Assembly (NCBI GenBank): GCA_903821695.1
Contig: CAIJLX010000053.1
Coordinates: forward strand, 13,826-77,825
Direction of reading: 5' to 3'
Length of the DNA stretch: 64,000 bases
Source of the DNA: an uncultured Alphaproteobacteria bacterium
Lineage (GTDB): Bacteria; Pseudomonadota; Alphaproteobacteria; Rickettsiales; CAIJLX01
Shown: positions 3-21,178 of the stretch, one piece after another
Position numbering within the stretch: the stretch's first letter is position 1
Layout of the letters: each line of letters opens with the position of its first letter
Position numbers and translations under genes: made by a program
The notes under the pieces: model-generated
What the model was told of the DNA's origin: nothing
The model's input: only the letters and a program-made list of their open reading frames with translations
Database searches by the model: none

Positions 3-596
3 TTAACCAATCGCTCTTCCGGCAAACAAGGCCATGCCGTTGCAGCCGCACTCGCGCATCTCGGTGCGGATGTGTTGCTCATTTCCGGACCAACGTCGGA
101 GCCAGATCCAATTGGTGTGACAGTAAAGAAAGTATTGTCGGCGGAAGATATGCTCAAAACCGTGATGAATGCATTGCCGGTCGATGTTGCAGTGTGTGCG
201 GCAGCGGTTTCGGATTGGCGTGCGGATCACATTGAGCCGAAGAAAATCAAAAAAGAAAAATCCGTGTTGGATATGACATTCACCTTCATGCAAAATCCGG
301 ACATCTTAGAAAATGTTAGCAAATCTGAACGCCGCCCTTCATTGGTGATTGGGTTTGCAGCGGAAACCGAAAACTTAACGGAAAATGCGCGCGATAAACG
401 TAAGCGTAAAGGCTGCGATTGGGTGGTGGCGAATTTGGTGGCGGGTGGCGCTGTGTTTGGTGAAACCGAAAATCAGGTGACGCTCATCACTGAGCAAGGC
501 GAAGAAACCTGGCCCAAATTAACTAAGACACAAGTCGCCGAAAAACTGGTAGAAAAAATTGTAATCACACTAAAAGCTGGAGGGCTAACTGCATGA
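3..596 (+). CDS. coaBC: CoaBC (Dfp) phosphopantothenoylcysteine synthetase/decarboxylase, C-terminal CoaB portion; 5' end lies outside the window
   Basis: The frame is open from base 3 ([31 protein letters not shown]...), which matches the CoaB nucleotide-binding region. AAVSDWR and KIKK motifs are present. It is followed directly by dut, as in the conserved dfp-dut pair. Confidence 0.85.
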
Positions 597-1042
597 TGAT
601 CCCAATAAAGAAACTCGCGAACTTTAAAGAAAATCCGTTGCCGTTTTATGCAACCGAGCAAGCCGCCGGCGTTGACCTCGCCGCTGCAATTGATGAAGAC
701 ATTGTGCTCAAACCACTCGAGCGCAAATTGGTGCCGACTGGTTTAGCGATGGCCCTGCCCGCTGGCTACGAAGCACAAGTCCGCCCACGTTCTGGCCTCG
801 CACTTAAAAACGGCATTACAGTACTCAATTCACCCGGCACGATTGATGCCGATTATCGCGGTGAGATTTGTGTGATCCTCGTCAATTTGAGCAACGAGAA
901 TTTCACCATCAGCCGTGGTATGCGCATTGCACAGATGGTGGTTGCACCCTGCATGCAGGCGCAGTTTGATGTCGTGGATATTTTGCCTGAAACCGCACGT
1001 GGCGAAGGTGGGTTTGGTTCCACCGGCGTGAAGCATGGATAG
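593..1042 (+). CDS. dut: dUTP diphosphatase
   Basis: dUTPase motifs are present: [51 protein letters not shown]. The ATGA start overlaps the coaBC stop. Confidence 0.95.
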
Positions 1043-1478
1043 TTTTTCCTCGCGCACATTTCATGCCGTGGAGGCGGTGCTCTATATTGCACTCAAAACC
1101 ACGACTGAGCCGGTGCGCAGCCGCGAAATCTGCGTCTATCAAAATGTTGCCGTGCGTTATCTCGAGCCGCTTTTACAAAAATTAGTCCATGCCCAAATTT
1201 TGCGTGGCGTGCGTGGGCCAAAGGGTGGTTATCTGCTCGCCCGCGAACGCCGAAAAATTACCTTAAGCGATATTATGGAAGCGGTTCACCCAACTTCCGG
1301 CAAAATTGACCTGCAACAATCCAACCTCCATCAACAGGTGATTGCCCCCATCTGGCAGGAGTCAAAAAAGTTTATCTTACAACAGTATAGCGAAATTTCC
1401 CTAGCCGATTTATGCCAACGCGCAGTCGCTTCCGGCATCAATATCGAAGCCGAAAAGAAGAGCGATTTTAATATCTAG
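1035..1478 (+). CDS. Rrf2-family transcriptional regulator lacking the Fe-S ligand cysteines (CymR-like)
   Basis: Winged-helix region [41 protein letters not shown]. There are only 2 Cys and no CX6CX5C cluster. It overlaps the dut stop by 8 nt and sits directly upstream of cysK. Confidence 0.8.
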
Positions 1479-1560
1479 CTTGGCAATTACGGCCATTGGG
1501 ATTATACCCTGTTTTACCTGATAGAAGGACATTCTCTCATCTCATTTGAAGGAGCAATTT

Positions 1561-2556
1561 ATGACCGTAACGGCACTCAAACTCGACGAACAATATCACG
1601 GCATCAAAACCAAAGGCCGTGGCAAAATTTATAACAATATTATTGAGACGATTGGCGATACCCCATTGGTGCGCATCAACCGCTTGACGAAAGAAGCAGG
1701 CGTGGTTGGCGACGTGTTGGCGAAGCTCGAATTCTTCAACCCACTTTCCTCAGTTAAAGATCGCCTCGCTTATGGGATGATCCATGCCGCAGAAGAAGCT
1801 GGCCTCATCAAACATGATAGCGTGATTGTCGAGCCAACCTCCGGCAACACCGGTATTGCGCTTGCATTTATTTGCGCAGCGAAAGGTTACAAATTGATTC
1901 TCACTATGCCTGAAAGCATGTCGCTTGAGCGTCGTAAAATGCTCAAATTCCTTGGCGCACAATTGGAACTGACACCAGCACCAAAAGGAATGCGCGGCGC
2001 AATCGAACGTGCGGAAGAAATTCTTACACAAAATCCAAAAGCGATCGTGTTGCAGCAATTTAAAAACCTCGCAAACCCGCTCATCCACCGCCACACCACC
2101 GCCGAAGAAATTTGGAATGACACCAATGGCAAAGTGGATGTAGTCGTTGCTGGCGTTGGCACCGGCGGCACCATCACCGGTATTGCGCAAGTGTTGAAAG
2201 CCAAAAAACCATCCATCAAAATTATCGCCGTAGAACCGGAAGATAGCGCTGTGCTTTCTGGCGGCAAACCGGGGCCACATAAAATCCAGGGCATCGGCGC
2301 TGGTTTTGTACCGGATGTATTGGTGCGCGATTTGATTGATGAAGTCATCACCGTCGGCAATGAAACTGCATTCGCTACTTCTCGCAAAGCCGCAAAACTC
2401 GAAGGTATTGCTGGTGGTATTTCTTCCGGTGCGGCGCTTGCTGCTGCACTCGAAGTTGCTGCGCGACCTGAGATGAAAGGTAAGCAAATCGTAACGATTA
2501 TTCCTTCGTTCGCCGAACGTTATCTCTCCACCGATTTATTCAGCGGGCTTGAATAA
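1561..2556 (+). CDS. cysK: Cysteine synthase A / O-acetylserine sulfhydrylase family (PLP-dependent)
   Basis: PLP-lysine motif [19 protein letters not shown], and glycine loop [10 protein letters not shown]. The ATG at 1561 is preceded by GAAGGAG. The ORF-track start at 1546 is a TTG inside the RBS. Confidence 0.9.
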
Positions 2557-2999
2557 TGGTTGCCGCTAACAGAGCAAACGCAGAGACTCCAACCACGGCA
2601 GCCTCAATCGGGCATGCGGTGCTGGAGTCGATGCGCTCTTCGTTTAAGAAGGTGCGTTTGGTTGTCTCGCCGCCACCAGTTCCAACTGCGGTTGCAGCGG
2701 AAGAAGTAACGAAAGCGGTGTGGCTCAAAGGCAATTTGATTTCCAATAATGGAAAATATTTTCCGCAACTCACATTACATACGGATGAAAATCCGACCTT
2801 GCTAGAAGCAGCCGTAAAGCGCCTGGAAGCAGTTGGGTTCGATGACAAGGAATGGAATGTTGCGCGTGAAGATGTACGTTTTTGCATGCGCTATAAAGCC
2901 TCCTATGCCAACCCGCAGGATGGGTATATCGCGCTTTCCGGCATGGTGTGGGAAGCGTGTAACCGCACCGGCCTGCAATACGCCAATCTCTCTGCGTGA
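2556..2999 (+). CDS. Hypothetical protein (147 aa), translationally coupled between cysK and the ThiF/MoeB gene
   Basis: The ATG overlaps the cysK stop (TAATGG) and the stop overlaps the GTG of the next gene (GTGA). The C-terminal two thirds look like a real globular protein (GKYFPQLTLHTDENPTLLEAAVKRLEAVGFDDKEWNVAREDVRF...). I recognise no family. The N-terminal ~50 aa and the exact start are uncertain. Confidence 0.45.
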   Translation: MVAANRANAETPTTAASIGHAVLESMRSSFKKVRLVVSPPPVPTAVAAEEVTKAVWLKGNLISNNGKYFPQLTLHTDENPTLLEAAVKRLEAVGFDDKEWNVAREDVRFCMRYKASYANPQDGYIALSGMVWEACNRTGLQYANLSA

Positions 3000-3721
3000 G
3001 ACGTTACGCCAGGCAAATGATTTTGCCGCAATGGGGTGAACAAGGCCAAGCCCGATTGCAGCAAGCAAAAGTACTCGTCGTCGGCGCCGGTGGTTTGGGC
3101 AGCCCCTGTTTATATTATCTTGCTGCTGCCGGCATCGGCACACTCGGCATTTTAGATCACGATCGCGTCGATCTCTCCAATCTACAACGCCAAATTTTAT
3201 TCGAAACCAACGACATCGGCCGCCCCAAAGCCGAAAGTGCTGCCGATGCGTTAGAGGATTTAAATCCGGATATTACCCTCAATACACACACCGAAAAACT
3301 AACCGCGGACAATGCCGCAAAACTTATTTCCACCTACGATATTATCGTCGATGGCAGCGATAATATCGCGACACGCTTTATCGTGCAGGATGTGTGCTTC
3401 GCACAGAAAAAAACATTGGTGAGTGCAGCCGTGCTTGGGTTTGAAGGACAAATCTCAACCTTCAAAAACAAACCTTGTTATCGCTGCTTATATCCCGAAC
3501 CACCACCAGAAGGTTCGATGCCGAATTGTTCTGAGAATGGAATATTAGGTGCCGTGACTGGCGTAATGGGTTCGCTGCAAGCAGCAGAAGTGATCAAAGA
3601 AATTTTGGGGCTCGAAACACTCTCCGGTATATTGCTGCGTATAAACTTACTGACGATGGAATTTCGCCGTTCTATGATTAAACCCGATCCAGAGTGCCCG
3701 TTATGCGCAACAAAAAAGTAA
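2996..3721 (+). CDS. HesA/MoeB/ThiF-family adenylyltransferase (E1-like), no rhodanese domain
   Basis: RYARQMILPQWGEQGQARL, nucleotide loop VVGAGGLGSP, DHDRVDLSNLQRQ, and Zn-site pairs CYRC and CPLC. Confidence 0.85.
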   Translation: MRRYARQMILPQWGEQGQARLQQAKVLVVGAGGLGSPCLYYLAAAGIGTLGILDHDRVDLSNLQRQILFETNDIGRPKAESAADALEDLNPDITLNTHTEKLTADNAAKLISTYDIIVDGSDNIATRFIVQDVCFAQKKTLVSAAVLGFEGQISTFKNKPCYRCLYPEPPPEGSMPNCSENGILGAVTGVMGSLQAAEVIKEILGLETLSGILLRINLLTMEFRRSMIKPDPECPLCATKK

Positions 3722-4344
3722 ATGCCAGAGACCAATATATCCGTGACCTCTATGCTGCGGAAACGGAATTGCTCACCCAAATACGCGCTACACTTGCGGA
3801 ACAAAATCTCTCGATTCATGTAAGCCCCGAAGAGGGAAAATTGCTACAAGTGCTCGTGCGTCTGCATCGCTCAAAACATATTGTCGAAATCGGAACATTA
3901 GGCGGCTATTCCGCACTTTGGATGGCAGAAGCGCTTCCAGCAGATGGTCATATTACTACCTTCGAAAAAAGTTCGGAGCGCGCAGAAATGGCACGCAAAC
4001 ACATTGCCACTTCGCCTTACACGAAAAAAATTACAGTAGTCGAAGGTGATGCGCATGCCATGTTGCGCGAGCATAAAGGCAAAGTGGATATGGTGTTTAT
4101 TGATGCCGAAAAAACCGGCTATCCGGATTATCTTGAATGGGCAGAACAACATTTGCCTGTTGGTGGTTTATTAGTCGCTGATAACACCTTCTTGTTCGAC
4201 ACGGTATTTAGTGAAGCGCCCGAAGGTGAGGCAAAAATGTGGAACGCGATGCGGCAATTTAATGCCGCGCTTGCTGAGCGATTTGAGGCAATTATTTTGC
4301 CGACCGCGGAAGGCCTAAGTATTGCTTTAAAACCAGCCAAATAA
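3703..4344 (+). CDS. Class I SAM-dependent O-methyltransferase (caffeoyl-CoA OMT-like, Methyltransf_3)
   Basis: IVEIGTLGGYSALWMAEAL, VDMVFIDAEKTGYPDYLEW, GGLLVADNTF. The ATG at 3703 overlaps the end of the ThiF/MoeB gene. Confidence 0.85.
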   Translation: MRNKKVNARDQYIRDLYAAETELLTQIRATLAEQNLSIHVSPEEGKLLQVLVRLHRSKHIVEIGTLGGYSALWMAEALPADGHITTFEKSSERAEMARKHIATSPYTKKITVVEGDAHAMLREHKGKVDMVFIDAEKTGYPDYLEWAEQHLPVGGLLVADNTFLFDTVFSEAPEGEAKMWNAMRQFNAALAERFEAIILPTAEGLSIALKPAK

Positions 4345-5056
4345 AATGTGCATTACTTATTGCATAGCGTTTGAATAACCGCCGCGGCTCCTGCAAAAAC
4401 CGATAGAACCATTCCATGCCACATGCTTGCATCCAACGCGGTGCGCGGCTTAGCCGATCCATCGCATAATCAAACGCCGCACCCACGCCAATCAACACCG
4501 GCACATTCAAAGCCGTTTTATGTTTATGAATCCACAATTCCTGTTTCGGCGCACCCAATGCAACAAATAAAATATCCGGCTGCGCTTGATTGATATTTGC
4601 AATGATTTTTACTTCTTCCTTCTCGCTTAGAGTGCGAAAAGGCGGGCAAGCCGTTCCAGCAATCACGATATTCGGATATTGCTGCGATAATTTTTTACCT
4701 AATGCTTCAGCTACACCTTCAACACCACCCAGCAAAAAAATACGCGCACCTGTTTTGCAAAGTGCATGCATTAAATCGACACCAACAATGCGCTCGGCTT
4801 GTGGTATTTCTTTTTTTGCAAGCCACACCAGCGGCATACCATCTGTTACAGCAAGCGAAGATGTTTCAAACGCTTGCATCAATAATGGATTTTTCTGTGC
4901 TTCGGTTAGCAAATGCACGTTGGCTACGATGACCGCATTATGCAGGCTGCGAGTCGAAATATAATGTTGGATGGTTTTTACAGTGTCTTCAAACGTTCCA
5001 ACATCCATCGGCACGCCCAGCAGCTTAGTGCGCATTGGGCGACCATAGCGGGGCAA
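4292..5056 (-). CDS. WecB/TagA/CpsF-family glycosyltransferase (GT26)
   Basis: LLGVPMDVGTFEDTV, VTDGMPLVWLAK, ARIFLLGG, and PKQELWI-type motifs typical of GT26. Part of the EPS locus. Confidence 0.85.
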   Translation of the reverse strand: MPRYGRPMRTKLLGVPMDVGTFEDTVKTIQHYISTRSLHNAVIVANVHLLTEAQKNPLLMQAFETSSLAVTDGMPLVWLAKKEIPQAERIVGVDLMHALCKTGARIFLLGGVEGVAEALGKKLSQQYPNIVIAGTACPPFRTLSEKEEVKIIANINQAQPDILFVALGAPKQELWIHKHKTALNVPVLIGVGAAFDYAMDRLSRAPRWMQACGMEWFYRFLQEPRRLFKRYAISNAHFIWLVLKQYLGLPRSAK

Positions 5057-5633
5057 TCAATGTGCGTAAGAGAATAACCATCTCCAACCACAGATTCCAG
5101 TTATCGATATATTCATTATCGAGTGTAGTGCGTTTCTGAATATCTTCATCGGTGTGAATCAATCCCCGATATCCATTCACCTGCGCCCAACCGGTGAGGC
5201 CTGGTTTTACACGGAAACGCATCGGATAATCGGCGCAGCGAGTTGCGAACTGCTTATCGTGATGCACGGCGTGGGGGCGTGGACCGACGAGTGACATATC
5301 GCCTATGACCACATTAAATAACTGCGGCAATTCATCTAAACTGCGGCGGCGCAGAAATGCACCTATTGGGGTAATACGTGTGTCTTTGCGGGTTGCTTGT
5401 GGCACGGATTCATCCTCCGCCGCTTCGCGGAACATGGTGCGGAATTTTATGATGCGGAATGTTTTGCCGCCTAAGCCACCGCGATTCTGATAAAAGAAAA
5501 TATCACCCTTGCTGGTTAGCTTGATTGCGCACGCGATCACAAAAATAAGCGGGAATAAAAACACCAATAGGCACAGGCCAACCACCTTATCCGTGACAAA
5601 TTTTGAGCAATGATAAAGTGCGGAATGCTGCAT
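5025..5633 (-). CDS. Polyprenyl-phosphate sugar phosphotransferase (small bacterial sugar transferase, initiating enzyme)
   Basis: One N-terminal TM segment, then FRIIKFRTM, DELPQLFNVVIGDMSLVGPRPH and GLTGWAQVNG. Confidence 0.9.
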   Translation of the reverse strand: MQHSALYHCSKFVTDKVVGLCLLVFLFPLIFVIACAIKLTSKGDIFFYQNRGGLGGKTFRIIKFRTMFREAAEDESVPQATRKDTRITPIGAFLRRRSLDELPQLFNVVIGDMSLVGPRPHAVHHDKQFATRCADYPMRFRVKPGLTGWAQVNGYRGLIHTDEDIQKRTTLDNEYIDNWNLWLEMVILLRTLIAPLWSPNAH

Positions 5634-7756
5634 CAATCTTTCTTCTGTGGTTTATGTTTGAAGGCGTAATTGGTGAAATAGAGATATTCTTCTTTGCTGC
5701 TTTTATAGTAACGCTGCTTCTTCAAATTGATGCGCGAGAGGGCAAGCATAAAGGGTTTATTGCTGAATTTCTCCTGCAATAATTTAATGCCCTGATTGAC
5801 TGCACCGCGTGGTGTTTTTTCCCAGCGGACGATATAGAGGCAGGCATCAGCATGCGGCGCCAAAAGAGCAGCATCGCGCACGCTCATGACGGGCGGCGCA
5901 TCGACGATGATCGTATCAAATTGACTGCGGACCAGTTGCATCAATTGCCCCATTGCTTGCAGCTGGAGCAGGTCAAGTGGATGGCCCTGCGGCTCGCCGG
6001 CAGGAATGCACGAAATGCCGCTATGTGAATCTTTATAAAAAACATCCTGAACCTGTGCCTGACCGGAAAGAACATCTCCAAGCCCCGGAACCTTACCCAG
6101 TTTAAGGCTTTTTGCAAGCTGCGAACGTCGCATATCGGCATCGATCAACAATACCTTTTTGCCGGTTTTCTGCAAAATGACCGCTAGCGAAAGTGCGGTC
6201 GAAGACTTCCCCTCCTCTTGCAATGAAGAAGAAATGAGCAGTACTTTCGGTGCGGTCGCTGAATCGTCAAACAATACCGTTCGCAAATTACGGGTGGCTT
6301 CCGCATAGAGCGGATAAAGTGCTGCATCCAGCATTTGCAGATGGTTTATTTCTTTATTTGTAGTTTTAAATTCTGGAATAGTCGCCACCACTTGCAAGCC
6401 TGTTTCTAATTCCAACTGTTCGCCATTTTGGAAACCGACGGAAGAAAATTCCCGCACCATACTGATCGCGATCGCGCCAATGATAGAGAGAATAAAGGTT
6501 GCGATGATAACGGGTATCCGCTTTGGCTCGAACGGATTGGTGGGTGGATAGGCCCGAGAAATAACCCGTGCGTCCGGTGCATGAATCACTTCATCCTGCA
6601 CATCGGTTTCTTTATAGCGGGCCAACAACACGGTGAATAATTCTTTGTTCGCTTCAATCTCACTCTTTAACCCACGCATCGTGATTTCGATGTCACTTTC
6701 ATTTTCGAGTGGCACACGCAGAGAAGTAATGTCATTGGCGATATTTCGAATGCGCATCGATAGCAAATCACGATCATTCATCAGTGCCAATCGTACGCGC
6801 TGTAATTTATCCGCTTTTCTTTCCTCGAGCGCATCCTTCTCTGCAAACAAACTACGCATCATCGGATGTTCGTCGCGATAACGTGTTTGCATCTGCGCCA
6901 TTTTAGCTTCGAGTGCCTGCTCCTGCGTTTCTATTGCCTCCATAAGCGGGGATTCCATAATGAATTGCGTTGTCTCCGCCTCTTCCGCACGGCGCATCAT
7001 TTTAGCAAATTTCTGCAATTTGGTTTCGGTTTCACTGCGTTCTTTTTTTGCCGTCATTAAGTCAGTGCTTAGTTGAATCAATTGATCTTGATACAGACTT
7101 TTTCCTTCAATATAGAGACTATCGGATGAACGGCGCAGCTGCTCTAATCGGTTTTCAGAATCGATCACTTTGTTGCGCATTTCTTCCACCCGTTGCGCTA
7201 GCCAGCGTGTGGCATTATGTGTCACCGAATTTTTTTCCTGCAATTGATCTTCCAGATATACATCAAGCAATGTATTGAGTGCCCGTGCAGCAAATTGTGG
7301 GTCGTTCGAAACATATTCAAGTGTAACCACAGATGAATGGTCGGAAGGTTGCACTAAAAGGCCACTCAAGAACTGTGTGATCAACGTTTCCTTGGATGGT
7401 TTCTGGATTTGCTCTGGCAAGTGATCAATACCAAGTTCTGTTATCACTTTTTCTGCCATGATGCGTGATTGTAAAATCGCTGATTGCGTACTGTTAGTGA
7501 AGGCACCAGGATTGAGCGGTTCGTTCACATCTTCAATTCGCGTTACGCGTTTGCGATCGCCCTCAATGATAATTTTTGCCTGTGCGCGATAGAGATCTGG
7601 AATTTGCTGCAGATAATAAAACACCAAAGCCGTCATGCCACAGGCAAGCAATAGAATGCCTATTTTATGACGACGAATGGCGCCCGTAATCCGGCGCACT
7701 TCAAGCACATCGCGTGCGGCAGCGGTTCGAGTCAGTTGGTTTAGCAGCTCGCTCAA
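5633..7756 (-). CDS. Polysaccharide co-polymerase (GumC/ExoP-like chain-length determinant) fused to a BY-type tyrosine kinase
   Basis: Wzz-like N-terminal TM, a long coiled coil and a second TM. Walker A SSSLQEEGKSST, A' LLIDADMRRS, Walker B DTIIVDAPP. The tail is Tyr-rich (QRYYKSSKEEYLYFTNY). Confidence 0.85.
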   Translation of the reverse strand: MSELLNQLTRTAAARDVLEVRRITGAIRRHKIGILLLACGMTALVFYYLQQIPDLYRAQAKIIIEGDRKRVTRIEDVNEPLNPGAFTNSTQSAILQSRIMAEKVITELGIDHLPEQIQKPSKETLITQFLSGLLVQPSDHSSVVTLEYVSNDPQFAARALNTLLDVYLEDQLQEKNSVTHNATRWLAQRVEEMRNKVIDSENRLEQLRRSSDSLYIEGKSLYQDQLIQLSTDLMTAKKERSETETKLQKFAKMMRRAEEAETTQFIMESPLMEAIETQEQALEAKMAQMQTRYRDEHPMMRSLFAEKDALEERKADKLQRVRLALMNDRDLLSMRIRNIANDITSLRVPLENESDIEITMRGLKSEIEANKELFTVLLARYKETDVQDEVIHAPDARVISRAYPPTNPFEPKRIPVIIATFILSIIGAIAISMVREFSSVGFQNGEQLELETGLQVVATIPEFKTTNKEINHLQMLDAALYPLYAEATRNLRTVLFDDSATAPKVLLISSSLQEEGKSSTALSLAVILQKTGKKVLLIDADMRRSQLAKSLKLGKVPGLGDVLSGQAQVQDVFYKDSHSGISCIPAGEPQGHPLDLLQLQAMGQLMQLVRSQFDTIIVDAPPVMSVRDAALLAPHADACLYIVRWEKTPRGAVNQGIKLLQEKFSNKPFMLALSRINLKKQRYYKSSKEEYLYFTNYAFKHKPQKKD

Positions 7757-8445
7757 AACCAGCTCCGCAACACTTCAACCGTATCGCCGGGTAGCACTTG
7801 CGAATCCTCATCGCCTATATGTTCTTCCTGCATCAACGGATTGCCCGGCGCATTGCGTAATATCCGCACTTGTGATGTGCGTCCGCGCGAATTCACACCG
7901 CCCGCAAGCGCCATCGCCTGACGCACGGTCAGACGTGGGCGGTAATCATATAGCCCCGGCTTTGCCACCTGGCCGATAACGTAAATCGGTGGGTATTGTA
8001 CAATTTCAACATCCACCCCTTGCGAAATAACATAAGCCGTTTCGAGCTGTTCAGCGATGCGTGCGGCGAGAGTTTTTGTGGTCTCGCCTTCTGCTAGCAC
8101 TTCGCCGACCATCGGAATCGTTACCGTCCCTTTCGGCCCGACAATAGTTTCGCGCGAAATTTCTTCATGACCAAAAATACGGATATAGATTTTGGTGCCG
8201 ACTGCTAGTTTATCAAATGCATCCGCATTGCACAGGATCGGCTTGACTGCTGTCGCAGCTACTGCCTCTGATGGAATTTTTTCTGGCATCGGTATTGCCT
8301 CTGCATCCAAATCCGCTGGTAATGCATCTTCTATGGCCATTTCCGGAATCTTTGGTTTTTCTTCCGGCACAGGCACTGGTTTTGCTAACGCCACTTGTGC
8401 GCAAAACAAAACCGCGATGAAAAAAATGTTTTTCATAATCTGCAT
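7753..8445 (-). CDS. Polysaccharide export protein (Wza-like, Poly_export/SLBB)
   Basis: Signal peptide MKNIFFIAVLFCAQVALA. The stretches IGPKGTVTIPMVGEVLAEGET, YVIGQVAKPGLYDY and LPGDTVEV are typical of Wza/GfcE-family periplasmic domains. Confidence 0.8.
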   Translation of the reverse strand: MQIMKNIFFIAVLFCAQVALAKPVPVPEEKPKIPEMAIEDALPADLDAEAIPMPEKIPSEAVAATAVKPILCNADAFDKLAVGTKIYIRIFGHEEISRETIVGPKGTVTIPMVGEVLAEGETTKTLAARIAEQLETAYVISQGVDVEIVQYPPIYVIGQVAKPGLYDYRPRLTVRQAMALAGGVNSRGRTSQVRILRNAPGNPLMQEEHIGDEDSQVLPGDTVEVLRSWF

Positions 8446-9725
8446 GACAGCGTCACTAACAGGGTGTTGCTATAAAAATCCCGATCCGCCACGTCGCTCA
8501 AACGGCGGCGATAACGATAATGGATGCCGGTGTTAATGCTGTTGTTCCATAAATAATTCAAACCCGCCCCTGCCAGATAATCATGATCGACATCATCCGT
8601 TGTGTTGGCGAATTCATAACGATCCATCCCCAGCTCACCAGTTGCAACTAGCTCGCTGGAAAGCGCAAGTGATGGAAGGAGTCTGCCACTTGTCACCGTC
8701 AAATCATTCACGCCTACTAAGGTGGTGCTTTCAATCGTACGAGTGAGTGTTGTATTGAGCATGAAGTTTTCATAAGGCGACCAACGTAGGGATGCATCAA
8801 TGCTTAGACCTTGCGTATCATCCAACTGTGAGTCTTCAAATGAACGATGCATTTGGCCGATACCTAAATCAAGAATCGTAATATCCGTCACATTATAACT
8901 CACACCGCCCAACACTTCATAGGCAGTGCTATCGCGATTGATGCCAGCGGCATCATGTGCGCCATCGTAGATTTCTTCAGAATAGGAAGGCTGCACAAAA
9001 ATGCGCATATCATCGTTAATCGGATATGAGACGCGCGCCCAATAACGTGAAACATCGCGATTGCGGAAACCTTGCGCTTCACCATCCAATTTTTCCAACA
9101 TAATTCGGTTGTAACTACTATGCGTCGAGATCGCGAACGGATAGCCATTGAAATCAATACCAACGCCACCACCCATAGTCTGTACATTGCGTAAGCGCGA
9201 AAGATTCATTGCCGTTTCCCGCGGATCATTCCGCTCTTCGGAAATTTGACTATAATTGAGATTCGCGTTTAAACTCCACTCATCCTTGATGTCGAGTCTG
9301 CCGTCACCATACAGATTATAATTATCCTGATTTTCTGAAACCTGATTCTGAAAACGCTTGAGATTTCCATTTGCACCAAAACGTAATTGATGCCGCTCCC
9401 AATCGGACCCGGCGGATATTCCTGCGCCAATATTTTGTGCAATATCGCTTTCACGATCGGTTTTTGATTGCTTGGCGTTATCCGTAAATTCAGTGGCGGT
9501 TCGTGCATTTGCTTGCACCTTAAAACTTGAGAGAAACCCACCTATGCCATTATCTGTTCTGCCAAAGATACTGTCGCCTAGCGATGCTGCTTGGGGCATC
9601 ATGTCGTCTTCCAACATACTGCTATCGTAAATCGGATCGTAATAGCTATAATATGGCGTCGGAGTCGCTGCTAAAGTGGGGGGTGCCCATAATACCATCA
9701 GCAATAAGAACGAAAGTAATGCCAT
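8433..9725 (-). CDS. Putative outer-membrane beta-barrel protein of the EPS locus
   Basis: The likely start is the ATG at 9725, which gives signal peptide MALLSFLLLMVLWAPPTLAA. The rest shows alternating-hydrophobic beta-strand patterning rich in Y/N/S/G. The longer ORF-track N-terminus is probably not translated. Confidence 0.55.
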   Translation of the reverse strand: MALLSFLLLMVLWAPPTLAATPTPYYSYYDPIYDSSMLEDDMMPQAASLGDSIFGRTDNGIGGFLSSFKVQANARTATEFTDNAKQSKTDRESDIAQNIGAGISAGSDWERHQLRFGANGNLKRFQNQVSENQDNYNLYGDGRLDIKDEWSLNANLNYSQISEERNDPRETAMNLSRLRNVQTMGGGVGIDFNGYPFAISTHSSYNRIMLEKLDGEAQGFRNRDVSRYWARVSYPINDDMRIFVQPSYSEEIYDGAHDAAGINRDSTAYEVLGGVSYNVTDITILDLGIGQMHRSFEDSQLDDTQGLSIDASLRWSPYENFMLNTTLTRTIESTTLVGVNDLTVTSGRLLPSLALSSELVATGELGMDRYEFANTTDDVDHDYLAGAGLNYLWNNSINTGIHYRYRRRLSDVADRDFYSNTLLVTLSCRL

Positions 9726-9806
9726 TCTACAACTATATAATGTATTTATGTGCCGTTTTACAACTAAATATAGACTTTTTCGCGTAGTCTCGGTTAGAAA
9801 TAAAAG

Positions 9807-11060
9807 ATGAAAAATATCACCATTTTGCATTGCTCGGAAACACTCAGCGTCAGCGGTTGCTGTCGTGTGATGGAGCATCTTGCAAAAAACATGGATCGCA
9901 CACGTTTCACCAGCATGTTTTGTGCAGAGAGTGGCGAACCGAATTATCTTGAATATTTGCGCCAAGAAAATATCGAAACACACCTTATCCCAAACACTCT
10001 TCCGAAGATCAAAAAACCGTTCGTCGCAATTCTACACCGCGCTGGCAACAACACACCATTCTGGGGAAAACTCATTCCGCAACTGCGCGAGGCGGGTGCG
10101 GCGGCCATCATTGAACGTAATATTTTCGGTTATCCTGACCAGCGCAATGACCGCCAATTAGACCGCATCTGCGCGAACTCACTAAACACCATCTGGCACC
10201 ATTGGCGACAGTCCGGCAAACCCGATATCAACCATTATCTCGCTCGCCATCGCGTGCTCTATAACGCCGTCTCTTTCGAGCCCAACGAAAGTGAGCTGCA
10301 AACATTACGCCACAAATGGCGCGTGAAACTCGGCATTAGTGATGATGCATTTGTGCTTGGCATTATCACCCGCCCCGATGCGCAAAAGATTGATGCGTTG
10401 ATGCTAGGCCTTATCCCGCATCTCAAAAAAACCATTCCGAATTTGGTTCTCGTCACTCGTCGCTATCCGGAAGTTCTAGCAAAGCCATTGAAGTTGATGC
10501 TTGGTGATCGCTATCATAATTTACCGGTTTCAGCGGATCCAGAAATGCTCAAAGCAACCTATGCGCTGATTGATGTTTGCGGCAATTTTCCGAGCATCGG
10601 CGAAAGTTTTGGTATGGCCGTTGCCGAAGCGATGCGCTCCTATAAGCCGGTGATCGCACTTGATCTGCCACAAAAAAACAAAGGCAATTCTCAGCGTGAG
10701 TTGGTCGAGCATGGCCTCACCGGTTATCTTGGTAAAACAGCAGCGGATATTGCAACGTTACTTGAAATTCTTTCAAAAGATAAAGCACTCTGTGAAAAAA
10801 TGGGCAAAGCGGCGCGGCAAAAAATGACCAATGCTCCGTTTGGGCTTTCGAGCGTGATCGCGCAGTTTGAAAGTGAAATTTTGCAGCAATTAGGCGAGCC
10901 GGCAACGGTGCCTATGCAGCCGGATAAAGCAACCATTCGGCATTATCTGGAAACCTATCCGAAACGCTTTGGTGATGTTATACTGACCCCCGAAAGTCAT
11001 TTTTCTATTCCTGTTTCCGCCACACGGCTTATATGGAAAGTGGTACGGAGATTTATATGA
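9807..11060 (+). CDS. Glycosyltransferase, GT4-like (group 1)
   Basis: EX7E-type motif GESFGMAVAEAMRSYKPVIA and HGLTGYL. Divergent from the OMP gene. Confidence 0.75.
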   Translation: MKNITILHCSETLSVSGCCRVMEHLAKNMDRTRFTSMFCAESGEPNYLEYLRQENIETHLIPNTLPKIKKPFVAILHRAGNNTPFWGKLIPQLREAGAAAIIERNIFGYPDQRNDRQLDRICANSLNTIWHHWRQSGKPDINHYLARHRVLYNAVSFEPNESELQTLRHKWRVKLGISDDAFVLGIITRPDAQKIDALMLGLIPHLKKTIPNLVLVTRRYPEVLAKPLKLMLGDRYHNLPVSADPEMLKATYALIDVCGNFPSIGESFGMAVAEAMRSYKPVIALDLPQKNKGNSQRELVEHGLTGYLGKTAADIATLLEILSKDKALCEKMGKAARQKMTNAPFGLSSVIAQFESEILQQLGEPATVPMQPDKATIRHYLETYPKRFGDVILTPESHFSIPVSATRLIWKVVRRFI

Positions 11061-11830
11061 TAACAGCGGTGATCAAAGCGCGGAACGAAACACGGCAACT
11101 CGCTGAATGTTTCTCCTCGCTCAAAAATTTCGCCGACGAGATTATCCTAATCGATGACAACAGCACCGATAACACCGCCGAACTCGCCCGCTCACTAGGC
11201 GCCGTTGTGATCACCATCACCGATCGCGGCGAGCGCCCGCTTGAATGGCTGGACACACATGGGTTCAAAGCCGCCAAAAACTCCTGGCTATTGCAAATGG
11301 ATGCGGATGAACGCATGACACCGCAACTCGGAGAACGCCTAAAGTCGATCGCCGAGGAAGGGAAGTATAATGGTGTGCGTTATGCTCGGAAAAATATCAT
11401 TTGGGGCGCATGGATTCGGCATGGTGGATGGTTCGTCGCGGATCAATTGCGCTTCTTCAAAAAAGAAGCCTTCGATGAAAAATGGTGCTGCGGCATTCAC
11501 ACCCAGCCACTAATTCGCGGCGATATTATAACGCTTCCAGCTATCGAACAGTTAAGCACACTACATTTAGATTATGACACGGTTGAACAATTTATCCGCC
11601 GCACATTACTTGGTTATGCACGCACCGAAGCATTGGGTTGTTATCAAGCCGGGCGCCGTTTTTCTTTATACAACATGCTGCTCAAACCCTGCACTAAATT
11701 TATTGGCCGTTATATTTACCGCCAAGGTTTCCGTGATGGTGTGCGTGGGTTTTTGCTGGCTTTTTTCCTTGCTGCTTATGAAATAATTATCGAAGCTCAT
11801 TTGTGGGATTTCGAGAGAAAGAAATTATGA
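11057..11830 (+). CDS. Glycosyltransferase family 2
   Basis: ITAVIKARNETRQLAECFSSL...EIILIDDNSTDNT and a QMDADE (DXD-like) motif. ATGA overlap with the upstream gene. Confidence 0.8.
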   Translation: MITAVIKARNETRQLAECFSSLKNFADEIILIDDNSTDNTAELARSLGAVVITITDRGERPLEWLDTHGFKAAKNSWLLQMDADERMTPQLGERLKSIAEEGKYNGVRYARKNIIWGAWIRHGGWFVADQLRFFKKEAFDEKWCCGIHTQPLIRGDIITLPAIEQLSTLHLDYDTVEQFIRRTLLGYARTEALGCYQAGRRFSLYNMLLKPCTKFIGRYIYRQGFRDGVRGFLLAFFLAAYEIIIEAHLWDFERKKL

Positions 11831-12582
11831 AATTTTCCATTGTCGTTCCCTCTTATAACCATGCCGCCTATCTTGAAGATGCATTAAAAAGCATTTTGCA
11901 TGAGCGTGATCGCGGCGTGGATCTCGAAATTATTTTGATGGATGGCGGCTCGCAAGATGGCACCGCCGCCATCATCGAAAAATATCGCCCGCATTTAAAA
12001 GTCGCCATTTCCGAAAAAGATAATGGCCAAACCGATGCGCTAATAAAAGGTTTCACCTACAGCACCGGCGATGTGATGTGCTGGCTCAATTCGGATGATT
12101 ATTATTATCCCGGCGCCCTCACCCTCATTCAAAATTTCCTCAGCAGCCAACCCAAAGTCGATGTGGTGTATGGGGATATGAATTGGGTTTCAAAAACGGG
12201 TGAGACCGAAAAAGAACAAAAGGAAATGGATTTCTTGCTGCCGGTATTGCTGTGGGATTATAATTATATTCCGCAACCTTCGACCTTCTGGCGACGTAGT
12301 GCCTGGCAAAAAACAAATGGTCTCAACCCGACTCGCCAATGCGCGATGGATTGTGATTTATGGTTTCAGTTTGTCAAAGCCGGTTGCCATTTCGCGCATA
12401 TTCCACAAACACTTTCCGCCATGCGCCGTTATGCCGAGCAGAAGAATCAGCGCCTACGTGTGTTAAGTGATGCGGAAGATAAAGCCATCCGCGAAGCATT
12501 TTTAGGCCGCAAGATTTCGCCACTCGAACGCCTCTATAAACGCCTTCTCTGGAAGCCGGTTCGTATTTTAAAACGCCTATGA
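11827..12582 (+). CDS. Glycosyltransferase family 2
   Basis: FSIVVPSYNHAAYLEDAL, ILMDGGSQDGT, WLNSDD. ATGA overlap with the upstream gene. Confidence 0.8.
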   Translation: MKFSIVVPSYNHAAYLEDALKSILHERDRGVDLEIILMDGGSQDGTAAIIEKYRPHLKVAISEKDNGQTDALIKGFTYSTGDVMCWLNSDDYYYPGALTLIQNFLSSQPKVDVVYGDMNWVSKTGETEKEQKEMDFLLPVLLWDYNYIPQPSTFWRRSAWQKTNGLNPTRQCAMDCDLWFQFVKAGCHFAHIPQTLSAMRRYAEQKNQRLRVLSDAEDKAIREAFLGRKISPLERLYKRLLWKPVRILKRL

Positions 12583-13895
12583 ACGCCACATTTTCGGAAG
12601 GCATTTACATCCGCATCCTACCCTTTTTCTTATTGGGTTATGCGGTTGCCGGGAAGCCGTTTGCTTATCTTGGCGTACCGCCACTTTATATGGGCGAAGT
12701 TTTATTGCTGATGGGCATATGGCAAATTTTGCAATCCACACATTTGTGGAAAGTATATCTGCAGCCCTCCGCCTGGCTCCTTTTCTTTTTCATGTTATGG
12801 AGCGCTGCTCGTACTATTCCTTATCTCTCGCAATATGGAATTTTCGCGCTGCGTGATGCTGCATTATGGGGCTATGGATTTTTTGCCTTCGTTATCGCGA
12901 TGATTTTAATTTCGCGCCCATCTTTATTATTAATACTCATGCTGCGTTATCAATCTTTCGCCCGATTCTTTCCTTTTGTCACTTTAATCGGCTTAGTCGC
13001 ACTTTTCTTTTTCAAACGTGTCTTTTTCGATATTAGCAGCTTTTTCCAAATGAAGCCGGGCGATATTTTGGTACAGCTTGCAGGTATCATCAGTTTCTCC
13101 ACCTGCGGGTTATTAGCCCCGACTTTGCCATGGATATTCGCGGTAATTGGTTCTTTATTAGTTGCAGGTTCGGTTGGTCGCGGTGGCCTGCTGGCATTTA
13201 CTCTCGCGGTTGGCGCAGTGTTCCTTCTGCGCTTACAGCATGCACGCACCTGGAAAATGCTGCTCGTGCTAAGCACCACCTTAATCATGATCGCTTTGTT
13301 ATTTACGGTATTTCCTAAAAACGAACTGGAGGATCATTACAGCCGTAAAATCTCGCCGGATCAGATTGTAAAAAACATGTTGAGCATCACCTCTGATTCT
13401 GAGCAATGGGGGTTGGAGGGTACGAAGCGCTATCGTCTCGAATGGTGGGATAAAATTATCAATTATACGTTTTATGGCGATTATTTTGTCGGCGGCAAAG
13501 GCTATGGCATTAACCTCGCCGAATCGGATGACCAATTGTTAAATGGCGATACATCGTTGCGCAATCCGCACAATGCGCATCTCACCATTTTGGCGCGCTC
13601 TGGTGTGCCGGGATTGGTGTTATGGGCGGTGCTGAATATCGCTTGGTTTTGGCGGACATTACGTTCTATTATCGAAGCGAAAGTTGCACAGCTGCGCGTA
13701 TGGGAGGGCTGGTTTTGTACATTACTCGCCTTTTATCTCGCCGCCATCATCAACGCGACGTTCGATGTCTATCTCGAAGGGCCGATGGGTGGCATTTGGT
13801 TCTGGACGGTGTTTGGCATCGGCCTCGCAAGCCATCATTTATTTTTAACGCTTCCTGACTTATTGGTAACGCATGAAGATTCTGATCGCGCATAG
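12579..13895 (+). CDS. O-antigen ligase/polymerase-family membrane protein (Wzy_C-like)
   Basis: Polytopic membrane protein with a periplasmic loop carrying NPHNAHLTILARSGVPGLVLW. ATGA overlap with the upstream GT2. Confidence 0.75.
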   Translation: MNATFSEGIYIRILPFFLLGYAVAGKPFAYLGVPPLYMGEVLLLMGIWQILQSTHLWKVYLQPSAWLLFFFMLWSAARTIPYLSQYGIFALRDAALWGYGFFAFVIAMILISRPSLLLILMLRYQSFARFFPFVTLIGLVALFFFKRVFFDISSFFQMKPGDILVQLAGIISFSTCGLLAPTLPWIFAVIGSLLVAGSVGRGGLLAFTLAVGAVFLLRLQHARTWKMLLVLSTTLIMIALLFTVFPKNELEDHYSRKISPDQIVKNMLSITSDSEQWGLEGTKRYRLEWWDKIINYTFYGDYFVGGKGYGINLAESDDQLLNGDTSLRNPHNAHLTILARSGVPGLVLWAVLNIAWFWRTLRSIIEAKVAQLRVWEGWFCTLLAFYLAAIINATFDVYLEGPMGGIWFWTVFGIGLASHHLFLTLPDLLVTHEDSDRA

Positions 13896-15015
13896 TTATT
13901 ATCAGCAACGTGGCGGCGAAGACGTCGTGTTTAACGCTGAGCGCGATGCGCTGATTGATGTTGGTAATGAAGTGAAAACCTATGTGCTGCATAATGCCGA
14001 TTACATAAAAAAACCCAAATGGCAGCAAGTGCTTTCGCTGTTTTGGAACCACCAAGCCTATCGCGAGATGCGCCGGCAAATTCAGGCGTTCCATCCCTCA
14101 ATATTACATGTGCATAATCTGTTCCCGTTTTTCTCGCCTTCCATTTTATGGGCCGCAAAAAAAGAAAATATTCCGGTGGTGGTGACATTGCATAATTACC
14201 GCCTTACGTGCGCCAATGGATTATTTTATCGCGAAGACAAAGCTTGCGAAGCATGTGTTAGAAAACCATTCCCTTGGCCAGCGGTGAAATATAGTTGTTA
14301 TCGCCATGATCGTGCGCAAACAACGTTGGTTGCACTCAGCACGTTCTTCCATCGCCTGATTGGCAGTTGGACTATCCCGAAATATTTTATTGCACCAACA
14401 AAGTTTGCGGCCGAGAAATTTTATTCGATTATTTCAGAAGACCGGATTCGTATTAAACCCCATTTTGCAACCTCCTATTCTCTCACCTTCATACCCAAAA
14501 ATAACCATGCTATTTTTGTAGGTAGGCTTTCGGCCGAGAAAGGATTTGATTGGCTGCTCGAAGCGTGGAGTAGTTTAAAAGCCGATATCACACTCGATAT
14601 TGTCGGCGAGGGTACGATTGTTTCGAGCACCGACCCGCGTATTATTTTCCATGGTCGGTTAGAGCCGGAGAAGTTGCGCAGCATGCTCGCCCAATCCGCA
14701 GTCACCATTATTCCTTCGCGTTGTTATGAAACCTTCAGCAATATTGTGATTGAATCTTTCGCTGCTGGAACTGCGGTTATAGCGCCGACGAATACGGCAC
14801 CAGCAAGTTTGGTGACACCGGGCGTAACCGGATCGCATTTTTCGCGGGAAGATGTTGCTGCATTCCACTCACGCGTTGAAGAATATATTAATGACCCAGG
14901 CCGAGCAGAGCGCGAAGGTAAAAACGCGTTGGCCGAATATCAGCAAAAATATCAGGCGAAAGAAAATATGGATATGCTGATGGAGATTTATCAGCGCAGC
15001 ATCAATGCAATATAA
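13873..15015 (+). CDS. Glycosyltransferase, GT4 (group 1)
   Basis: MKILIAHSYY..GGED, FVGRLSAEKGFDWLLEAW, PSRCYETFSNIVIESFAAGTAVIA. Confidence 0.8.
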   Translation: MKILIAHSYYQQRGGEDVVFNAERDALIDVGNEVKTYVLHNADYIKKPKWQQVLSLFWNHQAYREMRRQIQAFHPSILHVHNLFPFFSPSILWAAKKENIPVVVTLHNYRLTCANGLFYREDKACEACVRKPFPWPAVKYSCYRHDRAQTTLVALSTFFHRLIGSWTIPKYFIAPTKFAAEKFYSIISEDRIRIKPHFATSYSLTFIPKNNHAIFVGRLSAEKGFDWLLEAWSSLKADITLDIVGEGTIVSSTDPRIIFHGRLEPEKLRSMLAQSAVTIIPSRCYETFSNIVIESFAAGTAVIAPTNTAPASLVTPGVTGSHFSREDVAAFHSRVEEYINDPGRAEREGKNALAEYQQKYQAKENMDMLMEIYQRSINAI

Positions 15016-16605: not shown

Positions 16606-16883
16606 GTGATTTTCCGCCACCAGGTTATTTTGGTTTACTGCGCGAGTTATTTAAAAATAGCAGCTTTCGTTATCTTTTTGGTTTTACCCGCAAAATAAAT
16701 TTGTTGATATTGATTCCGGTGTTTTCTATCACCGCCTTGTTCGTTTCTGGCATGATTGACTCGGGCTGGATGCAACAACTGACCAGTTTCGTGACCGATA
16801 CTCTAGCAATGCTGCAAAGCTATAGTTACCGTTGCGCGCGGACGTTGCCTAATGTTCAGGCGTTTTTTCGTTGCTTTGAGTAG
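16602..16883 (+). CDS. Hypothetical small membrane protein (93 aa)
   Basis: The ATGA start overlaps the purU stop, and there is one clear hydrophobic segment (LLILIPVFSITALFVSGMI). No family recognised. Confidence 0.35.
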   Translation: MSDFPPPGYFGLLRELFKNSSFRYLFGFTRKINLLILIPVFSITALFVSGMIDSGWMQQLTSFVTDTLAMLQSYSYRCARTLPNVQAFFRCFE

Positions 16884-17589
16884 CATCCTCATCTTTTAGT
16901 TTACTCAAGCGATCTTTAATGAAGATGTTCATAAAGCGTAATTCTTCATCCGGTATATCTTTTTGTGTTTTCAAAATATTCTCGATGATGGCCAGGGCAT
17001 GTTGTTTTTCACCTAATTGCTCATGAATAAATGCAGGCATCTGGCGCGCCCAGAGTGGAACATCTGCTTCGGTAGTGCCCAATTTATAAGCGAGTCTTAG
17101 CGCCTCTTGCTTGTCGTGCATGCGGCTATTGGCGAGGTAAATTGCGTGCGACAACCACCACCATTTTTTTTCGGGATGGCGATCATAATGTTGTTCAAGA
17201 TAGCGAATGATATGCGGCACATCTCTCTTCGGTTCTTGTGAGAGGCTGAAGAGATAGCCTGCCATGGAAGGGGTGACGTCGGAGATGTCGTTCAAATCAT
17301 CCAGCAGCAGGAACCATTTTTCTAACAGCGGGTAATCATAATCACGGTAGGCGGTATAGCGGCCAAATGTATCGCCAGCATTTTGCAGGCGGAAAGAGGC
17401 GAGGCGGAAATAAAGTTCCGGGTCACCGAAGGAAAATAATTTCACCATTTGTGGCGAAGGTAAGCTTGGGACAATGCCGAGATCCGGCCGCAGCGGGCGC
17501 AAGTGAGACCATAATGCTACATTAGCCCCAAGGAAAAACAAAAACCCCGCGAGTATGAAATGTTTAGAATTGCCGGCGCGTAAAGTCAT
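16849..17589 (-). CDS. Hypothetical protein with an N-terminal TM anchor; last gene of the secretin operon
   Basis: N-terminal TM FILAGFLFFLGANVALW, followed by a helical, possibly TPR-like soluble part (KKWWWLSHAIYLANSRMHDKQEALRLAYKLG). The start overlaps the upstream gene by 26 nt. Confidence 0.5.
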   Translation of the reverse strand: MTLRAGNSKHFILAGFLFFLGANVALWSHLRPLRPDLGIVPSLPSPQMVKLFSFGDPELYFRLASFRLQNAGDTFGRYTAYRDYDYPLLEKWFLLLDDLNDISDVTPSMAGYLFSLSQEPKRDVPHIIRYLEQHYDRHPEKKWWWLSHAIYLANSRMHDKQEALRLAYKLGTTEADVPLWARQMPAFIHEQLGEKQHALAIIENILKTQKDIPDEELRFMNIFIKDRLSKLKDEDATQSNEKTPEH

Positions 17590-21147: not shown

Positions 21148-21178
21148 CCGTTACTTTCCTTCATTTCGCAGAAATGAT

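Follow-up and report, generated by a model that had tools for sequence, protein, structure and literature searches.

In Staphylococcus aureus, the C-terminal peptides of CysE (...DDYII) and of the regulator CymR (...YMFYI) enter the active site of CysK, as shown by crystallography and binding assays. The carboxylate of the terminal Ile replaces the substrate and competes with O-acetylserine, and the C-terminal Ile is conserved among such CysK partners (2024 bioRxiv preprint, 10.1101/2024.09.19.614015). We analyzed a 64-kb stretch of DNA from an uncultured alphaproteobacterium (64,000 nt of contig CAIJLX010000053.1; hereafter the window), in which genes for an Rrf2-family regulator, CysK, an orphan protein of 147 amino acids (aa) termed X, a ThiF/MoeB-type E1-like enzyme and an O-methyltransferase (OMT) follow one another. 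The original prediction, made from this sequence without database searches, was that these genes may form a sulfur-transfer or thio-metabolite module under CymR-like control, in which X would be an unrecognized partner protein and methylation the last step. Comparison with relatives led us to a different reading, to which we assign a probability of about 0.6: the string is a composite of a conserved housekeeping array, a regulator-CysK pair, an ordinary E1, the orphan X and an OMT, and not one pathway.

The Rrf2 domain (PF02082) spanned residues 5-128 of the regulator. The protein passed TIGR00738 (78.3 bits; cut-off 73.3) and fell under the equivalog cut-offs of IscR (72.7 vs. 207.55) and CymR (NF047409; 49.2 vs. 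195), as well as those of RirA and NsrR. Its only cysteines were C33 and C127, and the CxnCxnC ligand motif was missing. The lack of a Fe-S cysteine cluster had been noted originally, and it extended to the family: when the 120 best homologues were taken with a single member per 90% cluster (identities of 41-100%), CxnCxnC occurred in 0 of them. The C-terminus of the protein reads ...KKSDFNI. Among the same 120 homologues, the last residue was Ile in 119, position -4 was Asp in 117, and position -3 was Phe or Tyr in all 120, so that the tail consensus of this subfamily is D-[F/Y]-x-I. All 15 of the cysK-adjacent Rrf2 copies that were extracted ended in [D/H]-[F/Y]-x-I after a variable linker. 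CymR-like control is supported because a cluster-less Rrf2 has a near-invariant Ile tail of the CysE/CymR kind; this D-F-N-Ile tail, read from the sequence, had not figured in the original prediction. By analogy with CysE and CymR, Rrf2 is probably a CysK-docking regulator that senses cysteine supply via its tail. We infer from the same analogy that CymR-like control would be exerted here by an Rrf2 that is not orthologous to CymR and belongs to a separate Rrf2 subfamily.

The switch that we propose on this basis has four steps. The Rrf2 tail would insert into the CysK active site, as do those of CysE and CymR; the Rrf2-CysK complex would be the DNA-binding repressor form; O-acetylserine would displace the tail when sulfide or cysteine is short; and cysK, together with the genes behind it, would thereby be coupled to cysteine status. 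In almost every locus examined, the alphaproteobacterial Rrf2 gene lay directly 5' of cysK; in one (L179), a PNPOx gene intervened. Members of the subfamily (L001-L064, L179, L180; P0020-P0138) were often named IscR-type or "iron-sulfur cluster assembly regulator". A literature search found no publication on the Rrf2-cysK-moeB string or on an alphaproteobacterial CysK-docking Rrf2, and no cysE was identified in the region.

By its sequence, the synthase encoded next to Rrf2 is plain CysK, not CysM. It passed TIGR01139 (446.5 bits; cut-off 350.95), stayed below the cut-offs of the CysM models (TIGR01138, 268.1 vs. 394.2), and contained the TSGNTG loop and the QQF.N.ANP motif. ATG 1561, which follows the Shine-Dalgarno sequence GAAGGAG (1549-1555), was preferred over TTG 1546; it is the best start because of that Shine-Dalgarno sequence and the match to 331-aa calls in relatives. 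Both the Shine-Dalgarno sequence and the ATG were kept across an alignment of six relatives. The spacer upstream of cysK had a promoter-like TTGGCA...TATAC, and TTGGCA...GGGATTATA was common to the three closest loci. A consensus promoter scan of the spacer yielded no site that passed, and no palindrome conserved across sublineages was found in it.

Genomes outside the lineage of the window were scanned with a thiF alignment against one genome per GTDB species, and the 80 returned loci were annotated by tblastn. The thiF patterns did not recover the X lineage itself among the species representatives, in which the best match to thiF (61%) came from an alphaproteobacterial metagenome-assembled genome (MAG). 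To judge from the sample names, the X lineage probably stems from metagenomes of freshwater type. Rrf2-cysK-thiF, with cysK next to thiF and without X or OMT, was present in 12 alphaproteobacterial representatives, which include two Sneathiella, two Fodinicurvata, several Rhodospirillaceae and unclassified MAGs. Ten of these 12 also showed coaBC-dut upstream within the sequenced stretch, and the distance from the end of cysK to thiF was ~3-50 nt in most X-less representatives. An Rrf2 search added two more loci, one with the same array (L180) and one variant (L179), bringing the alphaproteobacterial loci with (coaBC-)dut-Rrf2-cysK-thiF and without X or OMT to at least 14. Conservation of the cysK-X-thiF-OMT linkage had been proposed as a check; its cysK-thiF part was found far outside the lineage, in the 12 representatives and the two further loci. 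Three loci (L021, L025 and L048) had coaBC-dut-thiF directly, without Rrf2-cysK; this comparison indicates that thiF belongs to the dut array with or without Rrf2-cysK, and that Rrf2-cysK acts as a two-gene unit.

The cysK-thiF junction was variable among these relatives. TetR and glyoxalase genes occupied it in L028 (4726-5822). In L179, a Pikeienuella sp. MAG (5680-8943), a PNPOx-like gene lay between Rrf2 and cysK, and the cysK-thiF junction held three small unrelated open reading frames (ORFs), two acidic and one membrane-like. The junction appears to be an insertion hotspot. The gene 3' of thiF also differed among X-less relatives. The string in the window is the 3' part of a housekeeping array found across many Alphaproteobacteria, ubiE-ubiB-coaBC-dut-(Rrf2-cysK)-thiF, and X and OMT are lineage-specific additions to it. 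Loss of gene order in relatives, or enzymes of plain, unrelated pathways, had been named beforehand as evidence against the module. This was found in part: the full order was restricted to the lineage, and the enzymes look like plain CysK and plain MoeB/ThiF.

Within the lineage, the neighborhood was highly constant. X lay between cysK and thiF in 9 of 9 X-family members with readable contigs, OMT lay 3' of thiF wherever the contig was long enough, and ubiE-ubiB-coaBC-dut preceded Rrf2 in all relatives. The shared order, fpg, ubiE-ubiB-coaBC-dut-Rrf2-cysK-X-thiF-OMT, wecG-sugar transferase-Wzz-export, extended over at least 16 kb. Because all X loci share this synteny, the co-occurrence of X and OMT is effectively a single evolutionary event. 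In distant sublineages, gaps of 54-78 nt replaced the overlaps around X, and the thiF/OMT overlap was kept.

ThiF/MoeB is, judged by its sequence, an ordinary E1-like adenylyltransferase. It scored 279.9 bits against PF00899 and 272.6 against the MoeB subfamily model NF004281 (cut-off 266). Its nearest solved relatives, which it matched to a similar degree, were E. coli ThiF (1zud; E 9e-54) and MoeB (1jw9; E 6e-50). The two CxxC pairs of its zinc motifs (C161/C164 and C234/C237) were invariant, and it had no rhodanese domain. GTG 2996 is the correct start because the N-terminal RYxRQ motif of the family is then retained; some gene callers chose ATG 3017. A 144-aa ORF with weak DsrE/DsrF-like similarity (E 8e-7) overlapped the thiF stop by 4 nt in a marine alphaproteobacterial MAG (L024, 6792-7226); this DsrE-like protein may be a sulfur-relay partner of the E1.

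No credible Gly-Gly-ending ORF was found in the window. A phmmer search for carriers used five queries: ThiS and MoaD of E. coli, CysO of M. tuberculosis and two retrieved ThiS sequences from Nitrospirota; the E. coli and M. tuberculosis sequences may be inexact. It detected no carrier of the ThiS/MoaD/CysO type in the window, and none in the alphaproteobacterial Rrf2-cysK-thiF loci or in the X-lineage loci with their 8 kb of flank. In Nitrospirota and Deltaproteobacteria, the same search revealed carriers beside cysK or thiF in almost every locus. We infer that the carriers used by ThiF are ThiS and/or MoaD, with genes in another part of the genome. On the minus strand of the window, 30757-31263 encodes a ThiE/TenI-like thiamine-phosphate synthase domain; this shows that the thiamine pathway is at least partly present in the organism, which is compatible with a housekeeping ThiF.

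One of the Nitrospirota loci (L033, Candidatus Manganitrophaceae, 1621-6804) had the order ThiS-cysK-thiF-ThrC-like-ThiS-NIL-thiF, in which the ThrC-like pyridoxal phosphate enzyme carries an N-terminal zinc ribbon. Similar loci were L022, L026, L030, L037, L040, L044-L047, L049, L050 and L080. The arrangement resembles a cluster with two sulfur carriers, serving cysteine and probably also homocysteine or methionine.

X is a genuine gene under purifying selection, fast-evolving and confined to one lineage. A word-indexed search of 5.8 billion proteins returned only three clusters of homologues, at 57-69% identity, and an exhaustive hidden Markov model (HMM) search of 1.84 billion representatives returned ~9 real clusters (50% identity), down to 22% identity; profile E-values of distant members reached 1e-11 to 1e-34. 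Two proteins with long matches in the exhaustive search (P0013 and P0018) were PASTA and KH repeat proteins, and were rejected as spurious because their scores sum over many stretches. In the alignment of 11 members, eight residues were invariant (W56, N60, L61, G66, Y68, G94, W100 and L127; the start M1 is not counted) and ten further columns were nearly so at 22-69% identity. The frame was open and alignable in all relatives. The ratio of nonsynonymous to synonymous substitution rates (dN/dS, Nei-Gojobori) was 0.15-0.23 for X at dS 0.9-2.3, and 0.01-0.10 for Rrf2, cysK, thiF and OMT in the same genome pairs. At ~30% identity of X, cysK was 80-82%, thiF 65-69%, and OMT and Rrf2 ~60% identical. 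The copies in L007-L009 were identical in protein and DNA and gave no additional selection test. Absence of protein-level conservation of X had been set beforehand as a possible refutation of the module; purifying selection was found instead.

We attach almost no credence to the idea that X is no gene and that its frame is open merely by chance, in intergenic or degenerate sequence. X has no family, motif or structural relative, its N-terminal third is of low complexity and poorly conserved, and a 115-aa antisense shadow ORF overlaps it, all of which would suit such a frame. It is opposed by the invariant and near-invariant columns in a frame that stays open in every relative, by the dN/dS values, by the E-values of the distant members, and by a confident AlphaFold core obtained from only 12 sequences. 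Between the window and its relative L002, dS was ~0.7 for Rrf2 and cysK (proportion of nonsynonymous differences in cysK, 0.006) and 1.5-1.8 for X, thiF and OMT; this step in dS may mark a recombination breakpoint close to where cysK and X meet.

AlphaFold2 predicted a disordered N-terminal tail for residues 1-45 of X (2556-2690) and a compact alpha-beta-beta-alpha-beta-beta-alpha domain for residues 48-142 (about 2697-2981). The core model, built from a trimmed 12-sequence alignment, had a predicted local distance difference test (pLDDT) of 92.6 and a predicted template modeling score (pTM) of 0.82. Searches of Pfam, NCBIfam, PHROGs and PDB sequences with the single sequence or the 11-member profile found nothing, and hhalign of X against neighboring unknown ORFs gave nothing significant. 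Foldseek comparison of two X models with the PDB produced no match under E 1e-3. The closest neighbors of the core had template modeling (TM) scores of 0.43-0.47 at 9-14% identity, several of them being chains of the Trypanosoma mitoribosomal assemblosome; further weak neighbors were DR_1245/YbjN-type proteins, LAGLIDADG half-domains and ACT-like domains. X ended in ...YANLSA, and the C-termini of the 11 members varied in sequence and length and lacked Gly-Gly. These empty searches and this C-terminus agree with the original description of X as a protein with no recognizable motif and no Gly-Gly end. Cys135 was present in 8 of 11 members, with Ser or Ile in the other 3.

A ThiS/MoaD/CysO-type carrier was considered for X and ruled out by fold, C-terminus and profile. 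No ubiquitin-like, ThiS or MoaD chain was among the top 50 Foldseek PDB matches of the core, and none of the 11 members matched any Pfam profile, that of ThiS (PF02597) included, with E values of up to 10 allowed. Because of its fold, its variable non-Gly-Gly end and the replacement of Cys135 in 3 of 11 members, X is not a carrier of the beta-grasp type, and it is not an obligate carrier of persulfide either. It could still act as an atypical E1 substrate if processing, of the kind known for carriers with C-terminal extensions, exposed a conserved near-C-terminal [Y/F]-[G/A] and ThiF then adenylated X. All 11 members have L-x-[Y/F]-[G/A] 3-6 residues from the C-terminus, and X lies directly 5' of thiF, the usual place of a carrier gene. 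However, in the sublineage of the window the motif position is Ala instead of Gly, the segment lies inside the folded domain (short strand at core-model 97-98, i.e. X residues 141-142), the vicinity holds no gene for a JAMM or any other protease, and the Foldseek matches of the fold include no ubiquitin, ThiS or MoaD structure. We regard an atypical carrier as very improbable. With low confidence, X could be a protein-binding accessory or adaptor of the product of a neighboring gene.

OMT is, on sequence grounds, an ordinary metal-dependent family-3 enzyme that was acquired 3' of thiF in the X lineage. Its Methyltransf_3 domain (PF01596; 134.1 bits, cut-off 22) spans the whole protein. Motif I for S-adenosylmethionine (SAM), EIGTLGGYS, and the metal-binding residues D134/D160/N161 were invariant within the lineage. 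The nearest solved relatives, 4pca and 4oa5, are annotated "O-methyltransferase family protein" (E 6e-43) and are, we presume, from Anaplasma phagocytophilum. Homologues of OMT were collected from 80 metagenome loci (35-47% identity), 55 of which had enough upstream sequence to be informative; thiF was upstream in only one of the 55. That locus (L178, 93-1366) is a short soil or metagenome contig outside the lineage of the window, with thiF (45% identity) immediately followed by a family-3 OMT (41%).

The remaining alternative is that cysK-X-thiF-OMT is a single sulfur module, in which X presents a substrate or partner for activation by ThiF, sulfur enters through CysK chemistry, OMT methylates the product and Rrf2 controls the set. 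Several observations fit it and weigh against a composite, so that a functional link of X, ThiF and OMT is possible. The junctions overlap: X overlaps thiF in the sublineage of the window and in that of P0011/P0012, and abuts or overlaps cysK in the sublineage of the window and in the P0012 locus. X and OMT are always together around thiF, down to ~30% identity of X, and the thiF/OMT overlap is retained in all sublineages. The adjacency of thiF and OMT recurs independently in the unrelated L178, a DsrE-like gene is coupled to the thiF stop in L024, and Cys135 of X is conserved in most members. The composite reading is further weakened by the regulator and by the carrier search. The Rrf2-CysK interaction is a prediction from the tail motif and gene adjacency, Rrf2 fails the CymR equivalog model, the promoter scan and the six-relative alignment defined no operator in the Rrf2-cysK spacer, and the carrier evidence for this genome covers 64 kb.

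We nevertheless judge the single module unlikely. Carriers of the ThiS/MoaD/CysO type were missing from the window and from the alphaproteobacterial Rrf2-cysK-thiF loci and were found in Nitrospirota and deltaproteobacterial loci. X is not beta-grasp, has a variable C-terminus without Gly-Gly and does not always keep its Cys; cysK is plain CysK and thiF plain MoeB/ThiF. In at least 17 other loci, an orthologue of thiF holds the corresponding position and neither X nor OMT is present, and OMT homologues follow thiF in a single informative locus. The X loci, with their common synteny, amount to one phylogenetic observation, and in distant sublineages gaps stand in place of the overlaps around X. 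The evidence thus does not support a dedicated module in which X is the partner and methylation the last step: X and OMT occur in one lineage only, thiF keeps its place beside dut in genomes without Rrf2-cysK, the window and the related alphaproteobacterial loci lack a carrier, X has a fold other than beta-grasp, and OMT homologues have thiF upstream in 1 of 55 loci. In a variant of the module, X would be a new kind of partner for a ThiF-type E1, an adaptor or substrate that lacks the beta-grasp fold and docks through its disordered tail. In this lineage it would redirect the housekeeping E1, along with the overlapping OMT, toward a product modified with sulfur or methyl, and Rrf2-CysK would control this in response to cysteine. 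We consider this variant a long shot. Better supported than this adaptor is the proposal that a large alphaproteobacterial Rrf2 subfamily may sense cysteine via a serine-acetyltransferase-like D-[F/Y]-x-Ile tail in CysK.

If that proposal is true, the widespread alphaproteobacterial Rrf2 proteins labelled "IscR" would be CysK-docking sensors of cysteine or O-acetylserine. The CymR principle would then reach beyond Firmicutes to a non-orthologous Rrf2 lineage, and many annotations would need correction. Tail docking would also explain the place of cysK, and of ThiF/MoeB behind it, in the conserved array. X, as an orphan with a confidently predicted fold and no structural relative in the PDB, is a small structure-function target with so far no tie to new chemistry. 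In this case, tight overlaps and suggestive neighbors did not add up to a pathway on comparison with relatives.

The gene string is real, co-directional and partly translationally coupled. Gene order was determined from the ORF listing, reading of the sequence and family scans of the window (Table 1). The five plus-strand genes were at the places originally reported for them, and their three overlapping junctions were verified in the sequence. The overlap was 1 nt for cysK/X (TAA 2554-2556 and ATG 2556-2558, within TAATG 2554-2558), 4 nt for X/thiF (TGA of X and GTG of thiF, as GTGA 2996-2999) and 19 nt for thiF/OMT. The earlier description of the whole string, including Rrf2-cysK, as translationally coupled does not hold, given the 82 nt between these two genes. 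The stop of dut overlaps the Rrf2 ATG by 8 nt and coaBC overlaps dut by 4 nt; because of these overlaps, the co-directional array starts 5' of Rrf2, the gene with which the original prediction had begun it. At the other end, OMT and a convergent WecG/TagA-family glycosyltransferase gene (minus strand, 4292-5056) overlap at their 3' ends by 53 nt (4292-4344). This overlap was 52-53 nt in L001, L002, L006 and L097, 44 nt in L014 and 4 nt in L010, and there was none in L013.

Table 1. Coordinates of the gene string and its features in the window
Feature	Coordinates	Strand	Family assignment
coaBC, C-terminal part	72-596	+	PF04127
dut (dUTPase), upstream context	593-1042	+	PF00692, E 6e-33
Rrf2-family winged-helix regulator, 147 aa	1035-1478	+	PF02082, E 6e-23
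Rrf2 C-terminal tail Asp-Phe-Asn-Ile-COOH, predicted CysK active-site plug	1464-1475	+	
Rrf2-cysK intergenic spacer, 82 nt	1479-1560	+	
cysK, O-acetylserine sulfhydrylase A, 331 aa	1561-2556	+	TIGR01139
X, orphan protein, 147 aa	2556-2999	+	no family
thiF/moeB, E1-like adenylyltransferase, 241 aa	2996-3721	+	PF00899, E 1.7e-83; NF004281
OMT, class I family 3, cation-dependent, SAM, 213 aa	3703-4344	+	PF01596, E 5e-39

The genes that follow OMT on the opposite strand are export and glycosyltransferase genes of a Wzy-type polysaccharide cluster (4292-15015). Its members are WecG, an initiating sugar transferase, a Wzz/tyrosine-kinase-like protein, Poly_export, a BBP2 beta-barrel porin, several glycosyltransferases of the GT1 and GT2 families and a Wzy_C polymerase. 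In L002 (11096-15214), the Wzz/tyrosine-kinase gene next to the cluster was truncated and was followed by insertion sequence (DDE transposase) genes and by genes for a TraG/TrwB coupling protein and a RelE-type toxin. Farther along the window, a secretin (18331-20340) and a prepilin peptidase (20344-21147) are encoded on the minus strand. A 758-aa protein (22613-24889, plus strand) carries a prepilin methylation motif at its N-terminus and ends in a domain rich in glycine; the ORFs at 16849-17589, 17564-18322 and 21074-22534, near the secretin, had no family match. MetW is encoded at 32104-32733 (plus strand). The sole Rfam match in the window was 6S RNA (RF00013, 60.6 bits) at 61613-61770 (plus strand).

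Among described proteins, the core of X can be set beside YbjN and DR_1245 (type III secretion chaperone-like), which are also small two-layer alpha+beta proteins of similar size. The TM scores were 0.37-0.41, with E 0.03-0.26 and 9-13% identity, and X differs by its disordered N-terminal tail. Because of these E-values and identities, and TM below 0.5, membership of X in this group cannot be claimed. The domain, SAM motif and Asp/Asp/Asn triad of OMT are those of other family-3 cation-dependent OMTs (caffeoyl-CoA OMT, relatives of TrmR/YrrM); unlike these, the OMT gene here overlaps thiF, which is peculiar to the lineage apart from one unrelated contig.

The window ThiF aligned end to end with E. 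coli ThiF and MoeB, the partners of ThiS and MoaD, and shares with them the RYxRQ start, the nucleotide-binding glycines and the two CxxC zinc motifs. Unlike the E. coli genes, thiF here has no adjacent carrier gene and sits behind cysK, outside a thi or moa/moe operon. With the CysO-CysM-Mec+ pathway of Mycobacterium tuberculosis and its MoeZ, the window shares a gene of the cysteine synthase family adjoining one for a ThiF/MoeB-type E1. It differs in that it lacks a ThiS-family carrier and a JAMM protease, its synthase is a CysK equivalog and not CysM, and its E1 has no rhodanese domain. It likewise differs from L033, which has the layout of a genuine protein-thiocarboxylate cluster.

The closest parallel to the regulator is CymR-CysK of Bacillus subtilis and S. 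aureus, in which a cluster-less Rrf2 is likewise paired with CysK. The CymR tail (...YMFYI) and that of Rrf2 here (...DFNI) are both Ile-terminal with an aromatic residue before the Ile. Unlike CymR, Rrf2 here scored slightly higher on IscR-type models, and its gene lies directly upstream of cysK within the coaBC-dut array of Alphaproteobacteria. The consensus D-[F/Y]-x-I is closer to serine acetyltransferase tails than to the CymR tail, S. aureus CysE (...DDYII) resembling the DF(N/T/A)I and DY(T/S)I ends of the Rrf2 subfamily. The predicted recognition is the same as in the CysE-CysK cysteine synthase complex, through a flexible peptide at the C-terminus whose last residue offers an Ile carboxylate; in CysE-CysK the tail is borne by an enzyme, whereas here it is borne by a DNA-binding protein.

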